Assembly (NCBI GenBank): GCA_041658585.1
Contig: JBAZZX010000005.1
Span: 17,226 to 81,225, forward strand
Direction of reading: 5' to 3'
From: Thermodesulfovibrionales bacterium
GTDB lineage: Bacteria > Nitrospirota > Thermodesulfovibrionia > Thermodesulfovibrionales > SM23-35
DNA length: 64,000 bases
Shown here piece after piece: positions 17,186-25,335 of this stretch (position 1 is the stretch's first letter; every line of letters begins with the position of its first letter). Both the position numbers and the translations under genes were made by a program. The notes beneath the pieces are model-generated. The model was given only the letters and a program-made list of their open reading frames with translations. It was not told the origin of the DNA and searched no databases.

Positions 17186-17278
17186 TTTAAACCCTCCTTA
17201 TTGAATACGTAAGTATAAATCATACCATAAAATATAGTTATAAAATCAACCTCTATTTGAAGCCGGGTATGCATATCC

Positions 17279-17767
17279 CTAAATCTCCGCATCAACGCTC
17301 AAAAGCCAGTGACGTGCCGGGGTTTCCCGAATCTGTTGCAGTGCCTTCTCTGAAACCCAGTGCGAGTCCTCTTCCAGATTATAGAAATAGGTGTCGATTC
17401 CGAAGAATCCGTCAAGAAAATGGGTGATGACATGGAGCATCTTTGTCCTGAAGCCCTGGGGCATTTCCGACAAGTCATGCAGCGTGCTCACCCCTTCTTT
17501 CCCTAATTCTTCCATCAGTTTATTGACAATCCTCCGGTTTTCCAGTATCGCCTTGTTCAGCCTCTCTTCAAAATCCGGACTTGTAGCCGGAAGCGAAGTA
17601 TTTTCCGCTATGGTTATATGAGAGTACCTGACCAATTGATAACGTTCAAAAAATAGAAGGACCTTTTTTCTGGAAAACGCGAAATCCTCACCTTTTACAA
17701 GGAACTCATGAAGATAATGCGACTTTCCAAGATCGTCCTGCCTTGACAATATATCCTGATAGGGCAT
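17279..17767 (-). CDS. hypothetical protein (162 aa)
   Basis: Clean ORF with no family recognised. It borders the accessory region. Confidence 0.55.
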   Translation of the reverse strand: MPYQDILSRQDDLGKSHYLHEFLVKGEDFAFSRKKVLLFFERYQLVRYSHITIAENTSLPATSPDFEERLNKAILENRRIVNKLMEELGKEGVSTLHDLSEMPQGFRTKMLHVITHFLDGFFGIDTYFYNLEEDSHWVSEKALQQIRETPARHWLLSVDAEI

Positions 17768-17854
17768 ATTTATTACCTTTCCCCCGGTATTTCAAATACA
17801 TTATCAATAATCCCCTTTTTTTTCAAGAAAGAATCAGAATTATGTCAATAAAAC

Positions 17855-17965
17855 CTATTTGTCGAGAGGGCTTCTGACGCCGAGGATATTTTTTGTTGCC
17901 ACATGGGTGTAGATCATCGTGGTCTGGAGATTCTGATGACCAAGCAGCTCGTTGACATGTATAAT
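17855..17965 (-). pseudogene. 3'-terminal remnant of an IntI-type tyrosine recombinase
   Basis: The minus-strand frame reads (TAA) [36 protein letters not shown]. This covers the box II region with the catalytic Tyr, plus the GVRSPLD tail as in IntI1 (...YTHVLKVGGAGVRSPLD...). Nothing upstream of it is recombinase-like. Confidence 0.6.
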
Positions 17966-17980
17966 TTATCCTTATATAAT
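17952..17980 (+). promoter_or_regulatory. perfect consensus sigma-70 promoter (TTGACA-N17-TATAAT) facing the TM-HTH gene
   Basis: Read directly: ttgaca tgtataatttatcctta tataat. It lies at the truncation point of the recombinase remnant, on the opposite strand. Confidence 0.65.
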
Positions 17981-18047
17981 GCTTACAATAACAGAATAAG
18001 CATAAAAATAAATGTTCGGTCATCAGACATGATCAGAAAGCTATAGC

Positions 18048-19118
18048 ATGATGTTCATCACACGACTCATAACGGAATTCGGCGAGTACCACTACACGCC
18101 TGACTACGTGCGTGGCGTTCTCGTCGAAATAACCGGGATTCTGATCGAGGTGCTCCTTCTCTCCATTGCGGTGCCCGTCATTTTCTATTTTGTCCGTCGA
18201 GTACGAACGAGGCCCATTCGGGCAATGGTGGATTTCTATCTTTTTCAGATATTTCACAAGGTCACACGTATGTTTCTTCGAATGGCATCAATCAGCGATC
18301 TCATGCCGATTATAGCAGAAGAGCAGAAACACAATCCGAAGTTCGAGATTTACAGCCACTTTGTCTACGGCAATCTCGAGAACATCCTGTTTGTCCTCAA
18401 GAGAACCTTTGCCAAAGGCGATACGTTTCGCACGGAGGTTGACAAGCGATCTATTGATGACTTCAAGGAGTTCCGGACCATCTCAGACCGCTGTCTTGAG
18501 GAAATCGATCGACTTGCGGCGATGCTTGTCGGAGTCCCGGACATCCAACAGGAACTCTTCCAGATGAGGATACTCGTTTATCCTCTTCGCGACCTATATG
18601 ATGAGGTTATCACGGATATCAAGGACTCAGAGAAGGAGCCGTTTCGCCGGAACCTCCATTCCTATGACGTCCAACAACAGGCTGAGCAACTCACCACAAT
18701 CATCGACTCAATCTTCACCAAGCGCCGAAAATTGATCGACTCGATGATGAAGCATCAGCAGTGGCGTTCGTACGCGCAGCTCTTTCTGTCCATTGTTCGG
18801 CGTTGGGCGCAGATACGGATATGCCGCTTCAGGAGAAGGCCCTATCGCGATTTCATCGCCCCGTCCCCGGTGCCTGACATGCTTCAAGAGTGGCGTGAAA
18901 GGGATCAAATGAGCCGAGAGCAAGCCGCTCAGACACTCGGGATTCCTGTTAGGGAGTACAGTGATTACGAGAACGGTTACAGGCAACCGGCAATGCACCT
19001 GTGGGAGAAGGTCAAGCCGTATCTTCGGAAGGCAAACGATGTCATTAAAGAGAAGCAAAGGACCGAACAATCAACTCCACCCTATTCGGAGAACCACGGC
19101 GGTTCTCCTCAAGGGTGA
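18048..19118 (+). CDS. membrane-anchored protein with C-terminal XRE-type HTH
   Basis: 356 aa. One hydrophobic helix (VLVEITGILIEVLLLSIAVPVIFYF), a long helical middle region, and a C-terminal MSREQAAQTLGIPVREYSDYENGYRQP HTH_3-like motif. No family recognised for the N-terminal 270 aa. Confidence 0.75.
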   Translation: MMFITRLITEFGEYHYTPDYVRGVLVEITGILIEVLLLSIAVPVIFYFVRRVRTRPIRAMVDFYLFQIFHKVTRMFLRMASISDLMPIIAEEQKHNPKFEIYSHFVYGNLENILFVLKRTFAKGDTFRTEVDKRSIDDFKEFRTISDRCLEEIDRLAAMLVGVPDIQQELFQMRILVYPLRDLYDEVITDIKDSEKEPFRRNLHSYDVQQQAEQLTTIIDSIFTKRRKLIDSMMKHQQWRSYAQLFLSIVRRWAQIRICRFRRRPYRDFIAPSPVPDMLQEWRERDQMSREQAAQTLGIPVREYSDYENGYRQPAMHLWEKVKPYLRKANDVIKEKQRTEQSTPPYSENHGGSPQG

Positions 19119-19180
19119 GTTGACGCGTTGGGCAGCGGTAGAGTGCGTTGGATATTTTTATATTTTATAAGGAGGCTGTC

Positions 19181-19621
19181 ATGAAGAAAACAATCACAAT
19201 AGTCAGTATTACCTTCTTGTCACTTTTCTCGGGATGTGCCCATCTAGATTTCGGAGATGAGGGACTTACCTATTATGATCCAAAGCCGTACTTGTTTGTG
19301 TCGACTACAAGAGATTGTGTGACTACTGCTGTGGTGCTGGTAGTACCTGAACAGAAGAAGGCGGTGAAATTTATATCAGGATATGGAACCGCCGACCTAT
19401 CAGTAGGCCTAAACAACGGAATGATTACTTCTGCTGGACAGAAGACCGACACAAAAATACCGGAAACAATCGGTGCAATTACTAGTATAGGAACGGCAAT
19501 GGCCGGTTTGAAGTTAAAGGAGCCGGGAAAGGGTTGCCCTCCTACAGCTGTACTCTATCCGATTGTATCTGGCGAGCCAGACAAAAAAAATCCAATCCCG
19601 TTTGACGTCCAAACGGAATAG
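19181..19621 (+). CDS. hypothetical lipoprotein
   Basis: Start moved to the ATG at 19181 behind AAGGAGG. Signal peptide MKKTITIVSITFLSLFSGC with a lipobox-like cysteine. No family recognised. Confidence 0.7.
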   Translation: MKKTITIVSITFLSLFSGCAHLDFGDEGLTYYDPKPYLFVSTTRDCVTTAVVLVVPEQKKAVKFISGYGTADLSVGLNNGMITSAGQKTDTKIPETIGAITSIGTAMAGLKLKEPGKGCPPTAVLYPIVSGEPDKKNPIPFDVQTE

Positions 19622-19665
19622 ATCAAAGTTGGCGACGGGGACGTTGAGGACGTTGTGAATCTTTA

Positions 19666-20747
19666 GGGACGTTGTTACTTAAGTTGCATAACTATTGACA
19701 AAGGCACAATTGAACAATAAAATACTGCCATGCCGCGACAAGCCAGATTGGATATGCCGGGAGCGTTGCACCACATAATGGTGCGGGGGATAAACAAGGA
19801 GTCCGTTTTCATTGACAAGGAGGACAAAGAACAACTACTTCAACGGCTTGGGATAAATCTTGTTGATGGGCAAGGTTTTGTATATGCCTGGGTAGTCATG
19901 GACAATCATCTGCATCTTCTTATCAAGAGCGGAAAACGAGGCATATCCGATATAATGCGAAAACTTCTGACGTGGTATGCCCAGTATTATAACCGTCTCC
20001 ATCGGCGGAGAGGACATCTTTTCGAGAACCGCTATAAATCCATACTGTGTGAAGAAGAGACATACCTTCTTGCCTTAATCCGCTATATTCACCTTAATCC
20101 GGTGCGAGCTGGGATAGTCGGAACCATGGAAGAATTAGATGAGTATTTATGGAGCGGCCACAGTGCGGTAATGAGAAATGTCAGTCGGTCATGGATGGAC
20201 ATCGATTATGTGCTTGCTCAGTTTGGGAGAAAGAAGAGGGCCGCCGGGAATGCATACAGGAAATTTATAGAAGAAGGCATGACAATAGGGCGAAAACCCG
20301 AGCTTACGGGAGGTGGACTTGGCAGGAGTGGCGGAGGCTGGTCGGAGGTGGTAGCCAGGAGAAGGAAAGGTCAGAAAGAAGAATTCGATGAGCGGATACT
20401 CGGCGGCGGGAATTTTGTGCAGGAGGTACTGCAGGAAGCGGAAGACAGACAGATAAGGCAACTGAAGATACAGCGACGAGGAATAACGATAGGGTCAATA
20501 ATAGACGAAGAATGCACAAAAGCAGGAATCAGCGAAAATGAGGTGAAGGCGGGCAGCCGCAGGGGGCCGGTGAGCAGACTCCGGGCAAGAATAGCATACC
20601 GGAGCAGGGATGAACTTGGATTATCGGCGGCGGAAATAGCCCGTCACATGGGCATGGCAACATCGAGTATTACGAGAGCTATCGATAGAGAGCATCATAC
20701 ATCATAGCGGCGGATAATAATAACGCAATTTCAGTAACAACGTCCCC
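19666..20747 (+). mobile_element. RAYT/IS200-like unit: Y1 transposase gene bracketed by 14-bp inverted repeats
   Basis: GGGACGTTGTTACT at 19666-19679 and its exact reverse complement within 20733-20747. Two further GGACGTTG copies lie in tandem just upstream (19638-19658). Confidence 0.65.
19730..20707 (+). CDS. REP-associated/IS200-like Y1 (HUH) transposase with C-terminal DnaA-C-like HTH
   Basis: GALHHIMVRGINK..., HUH motif MDNHLHLLIK, catalytic-Tyr region ALIRYIHLNPVRAGIV. The C-terminal segment ...LSAAEIARHMGMATSSITRAIDR is helix-turn-helix-like. Confidence 0.85.
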   Translation: MPRQARLDMPGALHHIMVRGINKESVFIDKEDKEQLLQRLGINLVDGQGFVYAWVVMDNHLHLLIKSGKRGISDIMRKLLTWYAQYYNRLHRRRGHLFENRYKSILCEEETYLLALIRYIHLNPVRAGIVGTMEELDEYLWSGHSAVMRNVSRSWMDIDYVLAQFGRKKRAAGNAYRKFIEEGMTIGRKPELTGGGLGRSGGGWSEVVARRRKGQKEEFDERILGGGNFVQEVLQEAEDRQIRQLKIQRRGITIGSIIDEECTKAGISENEVKAGSRRGPVSRLRARIAYRSRDELGLSAAEIARHMGMATSSITRAIDREHHTS

Positions 20748-20791
20748 AAAGAATCCTACACAAGGAAGAATCAGAATTATGTCAATAAAAC

Positions 20792-20902
20792 CTATTTGTC
20801 GAGAGGGCTTCTGACGCCGAGGATATTTTTTGTTGCCACATGGGTGTAGATCATCGTGGTCTGCAGATTCTGATGATCAAGCAGCTCGTTGACATGTATA
20901 AT
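20792..20902 (-). pseudogene. second copy of the IntI-type recombinase 3' remnant
   Basis: Same frame and same truncation point as 17855-17965. Two substitutions fall in the remnant (ctgGag>ctgCag, gatgaCc>gatgaTc on the + strand). Confidence 0.6.
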
Positions 20903-20917
20903 TTATCCTTATATAAT
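20889..20917 (+). promoter_or_regulatory. second copy of the TTGACA-N17-TATAAT promoter, facing brnT-brnA
   Basis: Identical hexamers and spacer. brnT starts 69 nt downstream behind AAGAGGAG. Confidence 0.65.
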
Positions 20918-20985
20918 GCTTGCAATAACAGAATAAGCATAAAAATAGATGTTATGTGTAAAATGAAAATAAAGAGGAGTAGCTT

Positions 20986-21285
20986 ATGCGATATTATTTC
21001 GACTGGCATCCTGAGAAAGCGAAGACAAATAGAAAAAAACATAATATCAGTTTTGAGCAAGCAGCCGGTATATTTCTCGATCCCAGAGCTATAACTGTGT
21101 TTGATGATGAACATAGTGAAAATGAAGACCGTTGGGTTACAATAGGAATAGATAAAAGCGGTATCCTATTGGTTATGGTACATACTTTTAATCAAATAGA
21201 CAGCGAATGTTGCAGAATTCATATTATTTCTGCTCGAAAAGCAACCAAAAAGGAAGCAAAACATTATCGGGAGGAAAATAAATGA
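20986..21285 (+). CDS. brnT: BrnT-family (DUF497) toxin
   Basis: FDWHPEKAKTNRKKHNISFEQAAGIF...RIHIISARKATKKE matches the BrnT/DUF497 pattern. Confidence 0.85.
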   Translation: MRYYFDWHPEKAKTNRKKHNISFEQAAGIFLDPRAITVFDDEHSENEDRWVTIGIDKSGILLVMVHTFNQIDSECCRIHIISARKATKKEAKHYREENK

Positions 21286-21485
21286 AAAAAGAATACGATT
21301 TTTCCAAGGGTGAGAGGGGGAAGTTTTATAGACCGGATGCAGAATTGTATCTACCTATATACATCGAGCCTGACATGATGGAAGTGCTAAGTAAATTTTC
21401 AAAGAAAAAAGGCGTCGAGATTGCAACGATAGTAAATGAGTGGATAAAAAAAGACATATCCATAGTAGAAACAATAACAAAATAA
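21282..21485 (+). CDS. brnA: BrnA-type antitoxin
   Basis: 4-nt overlap with brnT. N-terminal EYDFSKGERGKFY and a C-terminal RHH-like segment are typical of BrnT partners. Confidence 0.75.
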   Translation: MKKEYDFSKGERGKFYRPDAELYLPIYIEPDMMEVLSKFSKKKGVEIATIVNEWIKKDISIVETITK

Positions 21486-21486
21486 C

Positions 21487-21552
21487 ACATAACCAATCAC
21501 TCCACAGGATGCGGCGAAACTAACGCCGCACCTGTGAGTTCTATCGTTAGCT
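21487..21552 (+). other. attC-like bulged hairpin after brnA
   Basis: Starts 2 nt after the stop codon. ACATAAC (6/7 to RYYYAAC), a 9-nt unpaired spacer, a 13-bp stem 21503-21516/21524-21536 with one bulged A, a 9-nt spacer, then GTTAGCT (6/7 to GTTRRRY). No T-tract follows, so it is not a classical terminator. Confidence 0.45.
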
Positions 21553-21809
21553 GACAAATAAAACATCAATTTAACCATTGAGGCAATAATGTATTTAAAA
21601 GAAATATTAGAAGATGTCCTACCAACCAAGTGGTCACGTAGAATAATGGGATTGTCATTCGCATCTTCCATTGAGGTAGGATAGAAAAAGTGGACACCAA
21701 AGTCAGAGCCACCACTTGGGCCACTTACAAATCAGAAAATACAAAGAAACATAGTCACCGAAAGAAAAATTTGTTAAAATAACTTCAAGAGAAAAAAGGA
21801 GTTATCATA

Positions 21810-22010
21810 ATGAGCAAAATACAAAATATCGAAAGAGAAGTCCAAGGCCTAAATCCTGATGAACTTCAGGCTTTTAGAAAATGGTTCTGGGATTTCGACG
21901 CGCAAAAATGGGATCGGCAGTTTGAAAAAGATGCTTTATCTGGAAAGCTCGATTCACTGGCCGAGACAGCCATCAAAGCGTTTAAGTCCGGTCACTGCTC
22001 CGAAATTTGA
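21810..22010 (+). CDS. small antitoxin-like protein (partner type of RelE/ParE toxins)
   Basis: 66 aa with LNPDELQAFRKWFWDFDAQKWDRQFEKDALSGKLDSLAE. By recollection this family sits upstream of RelE/ParE-type toxins. A toxin stub follows with an overlapping start. Confidence 0.55.
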   Translation: MSKIQNIEREVQGLNPDELQAFRKWFWDFDAQKWDRQFEKDALSGKLDSLAETAIKAFKSGHCSEI

Positions 22011-22102
22011 AGCATTTTGCCTCGCCGGAGTTTTGGGGACTCTATAGGGCACTGCCGCAGTCTGTTCAAGACCTTGCAGGTAGAAATTTTGCATTAAATG
22101 AA
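22007..22102 (+). pseudogene. RelE/ParE-family toxin stub (first ~32 codons only)
   Basis: The TTG-initiated frame reads LKHFASPEFWGLYRALPQSVQDLAGRNFALNE, the N-terminal helix pair of this toxin family. Similarity ends at a GC-rich hairpin (ccccgccgcaagcagcgggg) and the rest is unrelated. Confidence 0.5.
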
Positions 22103-22314
22103 CTACCCCGCCGCAAGCAGCGGGGAATTGAACCCAAAGAGATTAAAGGAATTGGGATACTTAGAATCGCATCGCAATGAAATAATGGAACAATGAGGAC
22201 GGCGACTGTATGCATTTACGAATTTATTTGTTGAGGAGCAACGCCAATGTCAAATTGAATGATGCCAAAAGTACCTCATGTTACGTTATAATGATTTGTA
22301 TAAGGAGGCAAATT

Positions 22315-22527
22315 ATGAATGCAGAATATACGGCAGCAATAAAGCAATCAGGTGATTGGTGGATTGGATGGATAGAGGAAATTCCGGGCGTAAACTGTCA
22401 AGAAGGAACGTATGACGAACTGCTTGAAAGCCTTCGGCTAACCCTGAAAGAGGCACTTGACTTTAACCGAAGGGACGCTATCGCCGCTGTAGGTTCAGGA
22501 TATAAAGAAGAAAAAATCGCGGTATGA
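22315..22527 (+). CDS. hicB: HicB-family antitoxin (short UPF0150 type)
   Basis: Start at the ATG at 22315 behind AAGGAGG. GDWWIGWIEEIPGVNCQEGTYDELLESLRLTLKEAL. Confidence 0.8.
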   Translation: MNAEYTAAIKQSGDWWIGWIEEIPGVNCQEGTYDELLESLRLTLKEALDFNRRDAIAAVGSGYKEEKIAV

Positions 22528-22712
22528 AGCGCAGTGAACTGCTGAAGTAACTGCGGTCACAAAGATGTGAATTTATCAGAGAAGGTAGCCGCCATTCATG
22601 GTGGTGGAACCCCAGCCAAAACAAACGATCGTCTATTCCAAGACATACTGAAATCGACGATAATCTTGTTCGAAAAATTTGTAAAGACCTCGGAATAGAA
22701 CAAATAAAATGA
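22524..22712 (+). pseudogene. hicA: hicA toxin gene inactivated by a nonsense codon
   Basis: ATGA overlap with hicB. The frame reads MKRSELLK*LRSQRCEFIREGSRHSWWWNPSQNKRSSIPRHTEIDDNLVRKICKDLGI, which is HicA-like throughout. A TAA sits at codon 9 (22548-22550). Confidence 0.8.
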
Positions 22713-22713
22713 G

Positions 22714-22804
22714 CCTTAACACCGCCTTCAACCCAGACGCGGAATAAGCATAGTTTCTTTTTCGCGAAGGTGTTTGCCCGCGCCGCTGATTTACTACGTT
22801 ATCT
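22714..22804 (+). other. attC-like bulged hairpin after hicA
   Basis: Starts 2 nt after the stop codon with CCTTAAC. AACACC/GGTGTT and TTC/GAA stems are separated by a 3-nt bulge, then GCG(G)AA/TTCGC. Possible 3' boxes are GTTTGCC (22772) or GTTATCT (22798). Confidence 0.35.
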
Positions 22805-22890
22805 GTCAAAATAACTAAAGGACACTTGATAAATACATACGATTAATGCATACTAATGCATATAGAATATATTGATGGAAGGGGAATTTT

Positions 22891-23088
22891 ATGAGGACCA
22901 CACTCAACATTGAAGACAGATTACTTGACAAGGCAGCAAAGTTGACTGGTATTAAGGAAAAAACTTCCCTTGTCAGACTTGGGCTTGAAGCACTCATAGC
23001 AAAAGAAAGCAGTAAGAGACTCGCAAACCTCGGAGGAACAGAGAAGAAATTAAATATGGTCCCTCGCAGAAGATCAGCAGGCGCGTAA
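22891..23088 (+). CDS. vapB: VapB-type antitoxin
   Basis: MRTTLNIEDRLLDKAAKLTG...SLVRLGLEALI pattern. Immediately precedes a PIN toxin. Confidence 0.8.
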   Translation: MRTTLNIEDRLLDKAAKLTGIKEKTSLVRLGLEALIAKESSKRLANLGGTEKKLNMVPRRRSAGA

Positions 23089-23089
23089 A

Positions 23090-23446
23090 ATGGTTCTTGT
23101 TGACACCTCGGTGTGGGTTGAACATCTTCGATCCGGCAACGTCGGACTTGAAAATCTATTAAATGAAGGCCATGTTGTTTGTCATCTGTTCATAGTTGGG
23201 GAACTCGCTTGTGGCAACCTCTCAAACAGGTCTGCAATCCTTTCTCTCTTGCAAGCCCTCCCTTTGGTGAACCATGCAGAACATGAAGAAGTGATGCATT
23301 TTATAGAGAATTATTCACTTATGGGAAAAGGGTTAGGGTACATCGATATGCATCTGATTGTTTCGGCTCTATTGACGAAAGTTTCAATTTGGACACTCGA
23401 TAAGAAACTCAAAGAGGTTTCTTCAAAGCTGGGGTTAGAGTACTGA
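23090..23446 (+). CDS. vapC: VapC PIN-domain toxin
   Basis: VLVDTSVWVEHLR ... GYIDMHLIVSAL acidic PIN residues, 118 aa. Confidence 0.9.
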   Translation: MVLVDTSVWVEHLRSGNVGLENLLNEGHVVCHLFIVGELACGNLSNRSAILSLLQALPLVNHAEHEEVMHFIENYSLMGKGLGYIDMHLIVSALLTKVSIWTLDKKLKEVSSKLGLEY

Positions 23447-24200
23447 TTATCGCGGGCAGATAACAACGGCATGGCGTTATGCTTAACTTAACAGCGCCTT
23501 TTTTCAAATAAATTTTCCTGTCTTCTTCTTCAAATCTCTCAATCGCATATCTGAGCATCGTCCTCGGCATATCCTGATAATGCTTTTTCAGAAAAAACTC
23601 CTCTGCCTTTTGGTTTCGCTTTCCGACTTCCCGCAGCATCCAGCCGGAAGCCTTGTGTATCAGGTCGTGTTTGTCATGAATAAGGAGTTCGGCTATCCGG
23701 AAGGTATCGTCAAACTGATTGTTTCTTATAAATGTAAGGGTAGACAGAACCGATATTCTTTTCTCCCAGACGGATTTCGAGTGTGCCAGATCATAGAGGA
23801 CTGAACGGTCCCTTGTTAATAGATAATCACCAACAATATTCGGGGCTGAGAGGTCGACAAGATCCCAGTTGTTGATATGTTTTGTATGCCTGAGATAGAA
23901 ATCGAAAATCTCCTTTTTGCCGGGACCGTCAGCCTTTTTATATTTGATAACCAGAATAAGAAGGGCAACAAGCCTGTGCTCATGGATCCTTCCCGAAAGC
24001 AACCCTTTCAGGTCTTTGAGCGGCAGCTCCGAATACTTTTTGGCAATTTTACGCTGCTCGGGGACGACAATGCCGAGAAATATATCGCCTTCGCCATATT
24101 CACCTTTACCTGTCTTAAAAAACCGCGAGAGTATCCCGGCCTTTTCAGGGTTTGCTTTCACCTGCAATTCGTCTTTTATATTTTCTAAAAGTGTTTTCAT
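23409..24200 (-). CDS. DNA alkylation repair protein (AlkD-like HEAT-repeat family)
   Basis: ANPEKAGILSRFFKTGKGEYGEGDIFLGI...HINNWDLVDLSAPNIVG pattern. The 3' end overlaps vapC by 38 nt and the start codon lies in the end of a MITE-like element. Confidence 0.8.
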   Translation of the reverse strand: MKTLLENIKDELQVKANPEKAGILSRFFKTGKGEYGEGDIFLGIVVPEQRKIAKKYSELPLKDLKGLLSGRIHEHRLVALLILVIKYKKADGPGKKEIFDFYLRHTKHINNWDLVDLSAPNIVGDYLLTRDRSVLYDLAHSKSVWEKRISVLSTLTFIRNNQFDDTFRIAELLIHDKHDLIHKASGWMLREVGKRNQKAEEFFLKKHYQDMPRTMLRYAIERFEEEDRKIYLKKGAVKLSITPCRCYLPAIISTLTPALKKPL

Positions 24201-24392
24201 TAACCCAAAACCTGCGGATGTCCAAAATAAATTTATTTAAATCGATGATTTTATTTAAAAAGATAGTTCATGGTAATTGTATGAAAATATTTTGGTAGCA
24301 CATCTATATAAGTACACTGTTGTATCGAAAAATAAATTTATTTTGGACATTCGCAGTTTCTATGCCGGTTTAATTGCATTTTTTGGGTTAAT
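24198..24392 (+). repeat. MITE-like AT-rich element, family 2, copy 1
   Basis: 195 bp filling the whole intergenic space. Inverted ends: cattaacccaaaacctgcggatgtccaaaataaatttattt ... aaataaatttattttggacattcgcag..ttttgggttaat. Aligns with 55786-55977. Confidence 0.85.
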
Positions 24393-24399
24393 TAAGATT

Positions 24400-25335
24400 C
24401 TATAATGAAAAGACCTTCGTTATTGCTTTCATCTTTTTTCCCTGCCATATGTCCTTTGCGTCAAGCTTCTTTTCTATATCCCGCAGGATCTCCTGCCTGC
24501 TTTTTCCCCATTGAGGGGCTATGAGGATATTGTCCGGCGCGGTTGCGAACAGGCGTTGCAGAACTATTTCCGGGGAAAGCATCTCAATAAAATCGGTTAC
24601 AAAGTCAAGGTACTCTTCATATTCAAATACGTGAAATGGATTTTCTTTATACATCAGTTCAAGCGGCGTATCCTTCACAACCTGTAGTTGATGAATTTTC
24701 AGAAATTCTATTGGCAGATGTGACAGTTCGTCCGCCATCGCAAGCGTTTCCTCCTTTGTTTCCGTAGGAAAACCTACGATAATATGTGTTCCGATAAAAA
24801 TACCCCTGTCCCTGGTCAGATCAAGAGCTCCAAGAAATATCTTGTAATCGTGCCCCCGGTTTATATATTCGAGACTTTTATCGTACATTGACTGCATCCC
24901 GTATTCAATCAGTATGAAGTATTTCTCCGCCAAAGATTCAAGCAGAGCAATCTTTTCTTCATCAACGGTATCGGGTCTTGTTCCTATCGCAAGACCGATA
25001 ACGGCGGGGTCTGACAACGCCTCCAGGTAAAGATGTTCCAAATCGTCAACAGGCGCATAGGTATTGGTATAAGGCTGGAAGTAGACGAGGAACTTTTCCG
25101 TTTTATATCTTTTTCTGACATATGAAATGCCTTTCCGTATCTGCTCGGTTACGGAAAGGGTCGGACGGCAGGAATTGGGTCTGAAGCTGTCGTTGTTGCA
25201 ATAAATACATCCCGACGTCCCAACCGTCCCATCCCTGTTCGGACAGGTGAAGCCGGCATCCACATTTACTTTATAGACCGTGGCGCCATAGCGTTTTTTC
25301 ATAAATGGGCCGAATGAATTAAAGCGTCTGTCCAT
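24400..25335 (-). CDS. radical SAM protein, TIGR01212 (YhcC-like) family
   Basis: VNVDAGFTCPNRDGTVGTSGCIYCNN cluster motif and length. Confidence 0.85.
   Translation of the reverse strand: MDRRFNSFGPFMKKRYGATVYKVNVDAGFTCPNRDGTVGTSGCIYCNNDSFRPNSCRPTLSVTEQIRKGISYVRKRYKTEKFLVYFQPYTNTYAPVDDLEHLYLEALSDPAVIGLAIGTRPDTVDEEKIALLESLAEKYFILIEYGMQSMYDKSLEYINRGHDYKIFLGALDLTRDRGIFIGTHIIVGFPTETKEETLAMADELSHLPIEFLKIHQLQVVKDTPLELMYKENPFHVFEYEEYLDFVTDFIEMLSPEIVLQRLFATAPDNILIAPQWGKSRQEILRDIEKKLDAKDIWQGKKMKAITKVFSL

Follow-up and report, generated by a model that had tools for sequence, protein, structure and literature searches.

Is the cluster of toxin-antitoxin (TA) genes near rpsT in an uncultured Nitrospirota bacterium an integron that has lost its integrase, and if so, how was the integrase lost? 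The cluster lies in a 64,000-nucleotide stretch of a Thermodesulfovibrionales genome (GenBank assembly GCA_041658585.1, contig JBAZZX010000005.1, forward-strand positions 17,226 to 81,225), which we call the window and whose first letter is position 1. It is flanked on the left by a conserved gene for a 162-amino-acid (aa) protein (17279-17767), which is beside rpsT, and on the right by an AlkD-like gene (Pfam DNA_alkylation, 5.9e-63). An earlier note, made from the sequence alone, had proposed a decayed integron resembling a CALIN (cluster of attC sites without an integron integrase), with intI deleted down to its 3' end, between rpsT and an alkD-like gene. The site is near both genes, but the conserved 162-aa gene intervenes on the rpsT side. 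The proposal itself held up. There are attC matches in the window, the recombinase remnant is of the IntI type, and relatives have an intact intI and show cassette turnover. We conclude with high confidence that the locus is a decayed sedentary chromosomal integron of a Nitrospirota lineage, which occupied a fixed site between the 162-aa gene and alkD and has lost its integrase.

The two 193-nucleotide (nt) direct repeats at the locus are 97% identical, with five single-nucleotide polymorphisms (SNPs). Each had been described as carrying the last 33 codons of a tyrosine recombinase on the minus strand. This was borne out by tblastn with the intact IntI of a relative, L008 (contigs of relatives are designated by L numbers). 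The 33 IntI-matching codons are at 17858-17956 and 20795-20893, with identities of 94% for copy 1 (IntI residues 379-411) and 91% for copy 2, which has a G-to-D change in LLGH. The same search found no further IntI-like sequence in the 64-kb window. The top family for the 36-aa remnant peptide was the integron integrase family TIGR02249 at 39.9 bits (model positions 281-314 of 315), far under the whole-protein cut-off because the remnant is a fragment; XerC scored 30.8 bits. The GVRSPLD tail of the remnant reaches the very end of the IntI model alignment.

Synteny is more decisive than these profile scores for the identity of the remnant. We reached contigs of relatives through homologues of the 162-aa flanking protein and found an intact intI at the same site. 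L008, in which the flank protein is 86% identical, has a 411-aa intI (L008 130-1365) exactly at the position of the remnant and in the same orientation. Its product scored 424.5 bits against TIGR02249 (cut-off, 265), has the IntI-specific ALERKYPNAGKEWAWFWIFP...RRHH insert, and has a C terminus identical to the remnant. At the orthologous locus of L038, IntI (72-1367) scored 405.9 bits against the same cut-off. A homologue search with the remnant itself, padded to 41 aa, returned only proteins of 36-72 aa; this is probably in part a length effect of the search, and we did not take it as evidence. Among proteins of 72 aa or less, 881 match the IntI C-terminal tail, with varied breakpoints and several N-to-C-terminus fusions (e.g., P0013). 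Some of these fragments are on long contigs, from several phyla, and the search may favor short matches.

The attC sites were sought with covariance models built without the window sequence, from arrays beside IntI homologues (57-71% identical) in other metagenome-assembled genomes (MAGs). A direct-repeat search for attC sites in L012 found none, and L011 gave the first clear set of repeated sites. Model R1 was made from 4 sites in 3 MAGs and model R2 from 11 sites in 6 MAGs. R1 had one match in the window, the plus-strand hairpin after brnA at 21487-21552 (hairpin 1; 29.2 bits, E = 5e-6), with compensatory changes in the stem. R2 matched the same site (40.3 bits, E = 2.4e-7) and also 19062-19133 (31.3 bits, E = 4.4e-5); nothing in the rest of the 64 kb scored above 12.1 bits. 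Therefore, the check with an attC model that the earlier note had called for came out positive, here with a lineage model. Both significant sites are on the plus strand, at or just past the end of an open reading frame (ORF). When 24 attC sites were aligned, including the two from the window, the AAC and GTT cores were invariant in all 24. The L helix was 95% paired and each of its 10 pairs had compensatory changes, which none of 500 shuffles equalled; this alignment was fitted to the model, so these covariation figures are somewhat inflated.

Folding agreed with the models. As DNA, the bottom strand of hairpin 1 folds at -16.5 kcal/mol (z = -5.1, 0 of 200 shuffles), and that of 19062-19133 folds at -17.9 kcal/mol (z = -4.1). 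Hairpin 1 has the 13-bp stem with one bulged A that had been described for it, but it starts 1 nt past the stop codon rather than 2. Both window sites resemble the training sites: one A (a T in the bottom strand) bulges out of the 5' arm, the unpaired spacers are 8 to 9 nt long, and in both the bulged base is on the R''-L'' arm.

A second hairpin, after hicA (hairpin 2), had been described as having 3-nt and 1-nt bulges. Its CCTTAAC and GTTATCT boxes are present. However, it too starts 1 nt rather than 2 nt past the stop, it scored 7.3 bits, and a stable bulged hairpin at 22714-22804 can be rejected, as the fold is no better than those of shuffles (z = +0.6). The 3' half, CCGCTGATTTACTACGTTA, follows the L'-spacer-R' consensus of the lineage and occurs nowhere else in the window, where chance would give 0 copies. 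The true R'' and R' of hairpin 2 are probably CCTTAAC and GTTATCT. Hairpin 2 is a genuine attC that has been damaged, its L box being disrupted, and the same damage is present in relatives. The truncated attC of vapBC scored 10 bits, which is not significant alone; homology with the cassette-poor L006 resumes at 23475. We also considered a third attC past the lipoprotein gene (19576-19634). This site is possible but not significant, with an R'' of 5/7 in which AAC is broken, z = -1.45, and no model match.

A further line of evidence is independent of the attC models, which make no use of it. In an integrated cassette, R' is split at G↓TT (the arrow marks the junction), and the first bases of the cassette rebuild an R' that complements its own R''. 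Three cassettes in the window showed this complementarity at 7 of 7 positions: ORF356 (TTCGGT after the G, rebuilt R' GTTCGGT, own R'' ACCGAAC at 19062), brnTA (TTATGT, GTTATGT, and ACATAAC at 21487), and vapBC (TTATCT, GTTATCT, and AGATAAC at 23458). The rebuilt R' was also 7/7 in L046, in L047, and in three consecutive cassettes of L060. By chance, 7/7 is expected for about 1 in 256 cassettes, with AAC taken as fixed. For hicBA, the cassette start G↓TTATGG, seen after an attC in L060 and L061, predicts an R'' of CCATAAC, with which CCTTAAC agrees at 6/7. The candidate R'' of the lipoprotein cassette, GCCAGAC, agrees with the expected GCCCAAC at 5/7. From the 7/7 complementarity it follows that vapBC is a cassette, with an attC of which only R''-AA-N9-R' is left, and that the segment between the repeats is a cassette array. 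The earlier note had overlooked both the array between the repeats, with its attC at 19062-19133, and the truncated vapBC attC at 23458-23482. By the same reasoning, and to judge from the junction patterns, the G↓TT at the repeat ends is probably the recombination junction of an attI.

These results bear on whether the locus is an integron at all. A remnant of a Xer or phage integrase from a degraded prophage or island, next to a TA islet whose hairpins are terminators, could look similar: Pfam finds only a generic Phage_integrase domain in the remnant, TA clusters are common in many genomic islands, and Rfam has no attC family and none matching the hairpins, its only window match being a tRNA-Thr. 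However, the top family of the remnant is TIGR02249, with the GVRSPLD tail reaching the model end, and its intact orthologue scores above the IntI cut-off and contains the IntI-specific insert. The hairpins are without T-runs and match the attC sites of bona fide integrons with compensatory changes, and only integron cassettes obey the R'/R'' complementarity rule. We therefore regard this explanation as very improbable and, for practical purposes, refuted.

Cassette content at the site varies among relatives, with turnover at the end near the promoter. The same attI G↓TT leads into five different sequences. ORF356 is first in window copy 1 and in L045, brnTA is first in window copy 2, L042, and L043, and the three others are first in L044, L046, and L047/48, one each. 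The fixed part of the array is hicBA-vapBC alone, which answers the earlier note's call for a check on cassette turnover. The brnTA cassette is 98-100% identical in three other contexts, and in L042 the homology stops at R' and a different cassette is next. Four other cassettes, each a gene with an attC, are present in L060, and seven other genes in L061. On the distal side, hicB-(hicA)-vapB-vapC-alkD is fixed in at least 10 relatives, which fits the defective attC sites there and the distance from attI. One of the contexts of brnTA is at another place: in L041 (380-1030; GCA_936418495.1), a relA/spoT-like gene lies downstream of the cassette, and G↓TT is the point at which identity jumps. The sequence in front of the cassette there is attI-like but diverged and has a TTGACA-17-TATAAT of its own, and the attC has been replaced right after R''. 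The L041 locus is a second decayed integron site or else the result of a secondary-site insertion.

The junctions show how intI was lost. L042 has the 5' end of the same intI, then a ~170-nt spacer that contains ACAAGCAGCTCCTTGACATGTATAAT and ends with AAATAGATG↓TT, and then the brnTA cassette. A microhomology of ~11 nt, CAAGCAGCTCC, is present both in the intI 3' end (in L008, where it encodes ELLG) and in the intI-attI spacer (in L042). At the deletion junction in the window, CAAGCAGCTCG is joined to TTGACATG; in a fuller reading, GACCAAGCAGCTCG is joined to TTGACATG. This is the product expected of a ~1.3-kb deletion between two ~11-nt direct repeats. The deletion took out the body of intI together with part of the spacer between intI and attI and left the last 33 codons fused to a promoter like the cassette promoter (Pc) and to attI. 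The remnant frame opens abruptly after a TAA because the 33-codon tail is fused to the promoter and the rest of the spacer. The predicted promoter is kept in all copies of this unit, including copy 2, where a second 12/12 TTGACA-17-TATAAT promoter is at 20889-20917 on the cassette strand, and L042 has the same promoter between the intI 5' end and attI. Both repeats end with AAATA(A/G)ATG↓TT. Each repeat is a whole ΔintI-promoter-attI platform and not the mere remnant that the earlier note had seen. The cassettes would have been captured singly at the attI G↓TT by IntI-mediated attI x attC recombination, with attC sites folded from the bottom strand, and the promoter would still transcribe the first cassettes.

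The deletion junction of the window is also present in L039 and L044-L048, and it is not the only one. intI has been lost independently several times at this locus, by at least five different inactivating deletions, at least four of them besides that of the window. L060 has an in-frame fusion of intI codons 1-71 to codons 398-411. In L061, the whole intI is gone, with the promoter and attI kept. L037 retains ~100 N-terminal codons of a second type of intI, 44% identical to the first, and in L006 everything has been lost, including attI. The integrases of L008 and L038, two closely related strains in a single assembly, occupy the same site on the chromosome and are 44% identical, and downstream of its own intI, L038 has a ~100-nt remnant of the 3' end of the window-type intI. 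This suggests that one integron platform replaced another at the L038 site.

After the loss of intI, change in the array would need ordinary mutation or IntI supplied in trans. The orphan attI platform might still be active, with cassettes inserted and excised by a cognate IntI from another integron in the cell or from a co-infecting element; the locus would then be a functioning integron without an integrase of its own rather than a fossil. In favor of this, the same junction of CAAGCAGCTCG with TTGACATG is linked to five first cassettes in at least eight copies, the attC sites of the first cassettes are intact (31-43 bits) and the distal ones decayed, and strains with an intact type-A intI coexist in related samples. 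However, an identical junction may recur independently, guided by the ~11-nt microhomology, and a ΔintI allele may spread between strains by homologous recombination. The distribution of ΔintI also departs from the phylogeny of the flanks (L060, with flanks 95.5% identical, has another deletion, and the more distant L039 has the same one), and there is no second intI within the 64-kb window. Activity in trans is thus possible but unlikely. It is unlikely, too, that one ancestral ΔintI unit, served in trans by IntI, gained at least five different first cassettes in different strains and was duplicated here to give two promoter-attI entry points. Under the preferred reading, a sedentary integron without IntI, the array would now be frozen and decaying by ordinary deletions and point mutations. 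The relE stub, the hicA nonsense codon, the scars, and the damaged or truncated attC sites would be marks of that decay. TA cassettes with their own promoters would stabilize the array, and the distal hicBA and vapBC, as TA modules, probably do so.

The whole ΔintI-promoter-attI unit is present twice, 2937 nt apart, with each copy before a different cassette. The start of copy 2 is 34 nt downstream of the intI stop codon, and 5 nt separate it from the right inverted repeat of an element like the REP-associated tyrosine transposases (RAYT). The SNPs on the right-hand side of copy 2 agree with the brnTA-linked SNPs of L042 and L043. Single-unit variants exist for both halves: L045 has the left half (unit-ORF356-lipoprotein-RAYT, with no second unit), and L042 and L043 have the right half (unit-brnTA). 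These variants, together with the fact that Logan contigs break inside the unit, leave room for an artefact, in which the assembly merged two strain variants or collapsed a 2.9-kb circle (unit, ORF356, lipoprotein, and RAYT) into the chromosome. However, the copies differ at five positions no more than 99 nt apart, which can be phased by large k-mers and reads, and the left end of copy 2 must physically adjoin the RAYT element. The junction between the RAYT right repeat and unit 2 is present at 100% in the Logan contig L040 and also in the JGI contig L001. L040 was assembled independently and has both junctions of the middle segment at 100%; therefore, the join is physical. An artefact is thus improbable, and the tandem most likely arose when two strain variants recombined homologously, either through a mobile element present in both or through the unit itself.

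Several points weigh against the conclusion that the locus is a decayed integron. All sequences come from metagenome assemblies. The attC models are lineage specific, draw on 4 and 11 sites, and give approximate E-values. Two attC sites in the window are significant; the lipoprotein, parD/relE, and hicBA modules are without a functional attC, and their cassette status rests on the context in relatives. The putative attI is recognized by junction patterns. A tandem duplication of the platform is unusual and does not belong to the known outcomes of integron recombination. Finally, the attC model had no match in the cassette-poor L005 and L006, a single-antitoxin variant without recognizable sites.

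The locus is a CALIN with an adjacent intI pseudogene. It is a well-documented case of a known kind of element, with no new mechanism. CALINs are recognized by two or more attC sites within 4 kb and no intI nearby. Here, two significant attC sites are 2.35 kb apart and there is no functional intI, as judged with our custom lineage attC model and not that of IntegronFinder. The dead intI seems to be the sole respect in which the locus falls short of a complete integron. Integrase loss has been proposed as one origin of CALINs, and 15 of 279 were beside an intI pseudogene (Cury et al. 2016, PMC4889954). The window array resembles these in having an adjoining intI fragment. It differs in that the path of loss can be seen, from the junction and its microhomology, from sister strains whose orthologues are intact, and from four or more other, independent deletions at the locus, and in that the platform remnant (ΔintI-Pc-attI) is in tandem. 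The sequences show what the parts are, where the deletion joined, where the cassettes end, and how relatives differ; for the mechanism beyond this, we draw on what is established about integrons (Cury et al. 2016, PMC4889954; Richard et al. 2024, PMC13108822).

Like the sedentary integrons of Vibrio, such as the V. cholerae superintegron (PMC13108822), the locus has a fixed site within a clade, co-oriented cassettes that read away from intI, a predicted Pc between intI and the putative attI, attC sites that are similar within the lineage, and interspersed promoter-bearing TA cassettes. However, the Vibrio superintegron has ~180 cassettes, whereas the window array has ~6-7, mostly TA modules, its integrase is dead, and its host is an uncultured Nitrospirota bacterium. 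Unlike the VCR-type attC of Vibrio, the window attC has 8- to 9-nt unpaired spacers and a single bulged A/T. Class 1 mobile integrons (intI1-attI1-Pc-cassettes) follow the same functional logic, with IntI, an attI with a G↓TT crossover, RYYYAAC and GTTRRRY attC boxes, and an outward promoter, and the tail of the remnant (....GVRSPLD) resembles IntI1. In contrast to those integrons, the locus is on no transposon or plasmid and is without resistance genes, its promoter is in the spacer and not inside intI, and the intact orthologue of its integrase, at 411 aa, has an extra N-terminal extension of ~100 aa.

Most CALINs have no visible history. This Nitrospirota site shows every stage side by side: intact intI of two types, at least five inactivating deletions, turnover of proximal cassettes, and distal fixation of TA cassettes with broken attC sites. 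It is an unusually complete natural decay series in which to ask how and why sedentary integrons lose the integrase, and whether an orphan attI stays usable in trans, with cassette exchange continuing after the deletion. Also, attC sites of the lineage type, with 8- to 9-nt spacers and a single bulged base, may score poorly with general models.

Table 1. Features of the integron locus, in window coordinates
Feature	Position	Strand	Remarks
Repeat copy 1	17824-18016		Region downstream of intI, 3' remnant of ΔintI, predicted promoter, putative attI as far as the G↓TT core
ΔintI remnant 1	17855-17965	-	Last 33 codons plus stop match IntI; 3 junction codons (IIH) after TAA
Predicted Pc-like promoter	17952-17980	+	TTGACA-17-TATAAT, 12/12 match to sigma-70 consensus; reads into cassettes
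Putative attI crossover core G↓TT, copy 1	18014-18016	+	Repeat copies alike up to here, unrelated beyond
Cassette 1	18015-19127	+	ORF356 (18048-19118) plus attC; Pfam HTH_3
attC of cassette 1	19062-19133	+	At 3' end of ORF356; boxes ACCGAAC and GTTGGGC; R2, fold
Cassette 2	19128-19634	+	Putative lipoprotein (19181-19621); starts at G↓TT of preceding attC
RAYT/IS200-like element	19657-20755	+	Y1 transposase-like gene (19730-20707) between 40-nt inverted repeats
Repeat copy 2	20761-20953		ΔintI remnant 20792-20902 (-), promoter 20889-20917 (+), attI G↓TT 20951-20953
brnT-brnA cassette	20952-21546	+	brnT 20986-21285, brnA-like 21282-21485; BrnT Pfam 1.6e-25
attC of brnTA cassette (hairpin 1)	21487-21552	+	Boxes ACATAAC and GTTAGCT; R1, R2, fold
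Orphan cassette start (scar)	21547-21669	+	Cassette body and attC deleted
Putative antitoxin plus relE/parE stub	21670-22096	+	66-aa ORF 21810-22010, overlapping relE 5' stub 22007-~22100; no attC
3' end and downstream of deleted DUF6530 cassette ORF	22142-22250	+	Last 8 codons left
hicB-hicA cassette	22251-22798	+	hicB-like 22315-22527; hicA pseudogene 22524-22712
Damaged attC of hicBA (hairpin 2)	22714-22804	+	R'' CCTTAAC, L box disrupted, 3' half CCGCTGATTTACTACGTTATCT conserved
vapB-vapC cassette	22799-23476	+	vapB 22891-23088, vapC 23090-23446; Pfam VapB 9.5e-16, PIN 1e-6
Truncated attC of vapBC	23458-23482	+	R''-AA-N9-R', hairpin deleted; right end of array

The remaining features are listed in Table 1. 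To the right of copy 2, the earlier note had described four co-oriented TA modules. BrnT, VapB, VapC, HicA (with a stop codon), and the relE stub were confirmed. The BrnA-like, HicB-like, and 66-aa "ParD-like" proteins had no significant family match and are called antitoxins by position. HicA matched its Pfam family at 3.5e-10 and has an in-frame stop at codon 9. The strains are polymorphic for this stop: HicA is called, at 62 aa, in L054-L059 and not in L051-L053 or the window, and the HicB-like protein is identical throughout. Downstream of the orphan cassette start at 21547-21669 there is no copy of the R'' that it predicts, AGCTAAC, and homology with L045 and L046 resumes at 21670-21672. 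The putative antitoxin block that follows is common to L045 and L046, and L045 holds the remaining relE, itself frameshifted. L047 and L053 have a full 160-aa DUF6530 ORF that ends (...ILKELGY*) on the sequence at 22142-22250. Between these two deletion scars is a 45-nt stretch, 22097-22141, that only this strain has, that is missing from L045 and L047, and that contains a GC-rich hairpin (CCCCGCCGCAAGCAGCGGGG) with a terminator-like score on the minus strand. We considered whether the GC hairpin, at 22106-22125, is a tRNA 3' fragment or an attC remnant and rejected both, as neither ARAGORN nor the attC model returned anything.

Between the repeats, ORF356 is the first cassette behind the consensus promoter. 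Its product has a predicted N-terminal membrane segment, the HTH_3 domain is C terminal, and there is a weak PADLOC match to RmrA (7.9e-5, in the HTH region only). The transposase-like gene of the RAYT element matched Pfam Y1_Tnp (5e-10) and the NCBIfam REP-associated tyrosine transposase NF047646 at 66.6 bits, under the cut-off of 80. The protein is 325 aa with a C-terminal helix-turn-helix, and the inverted repeats read GA(A/T)TCTTT(A/G)GGGACGTTGTTACT. A near-consensus promoter (11/12) at 19695-19723 is within the left inverted repeat, and no further copies of the inverted repeat were found in the 64-kb window. In L045, the RAYT-like gene is truncated at residue 175 and is followed by a second, different RAYT-like gene. 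The element might have been an attC-targeting insertion, but there are no attC halves at its flanks, and we rejected this idea.

At the right end of the locus, the alkD frame is 263 aa, compared to 237-241 aa in relatives. The 22-26 extra codons overlap the 3' end of vapC (23409-23500). The frame is longer because the terminal R' and the adjacent 28 nt are retained here and deleted in L060 and L061. An element resembling a miniature inverted-repeat transposable element (MITE) is at 24181-24410, between alkD and a radical-SAM gene, with nested inverted repeats of 30 nt (93%) and 35 nt (71%). L046-L048 have a related copy between the 162-aa gene and the ΔintI unit, and L044 and L060 have other insertions of ~200 nt at nearly the same point downstream of intI. 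Therefore, the spacer downstream of intI looks like a hot spot for insertion.

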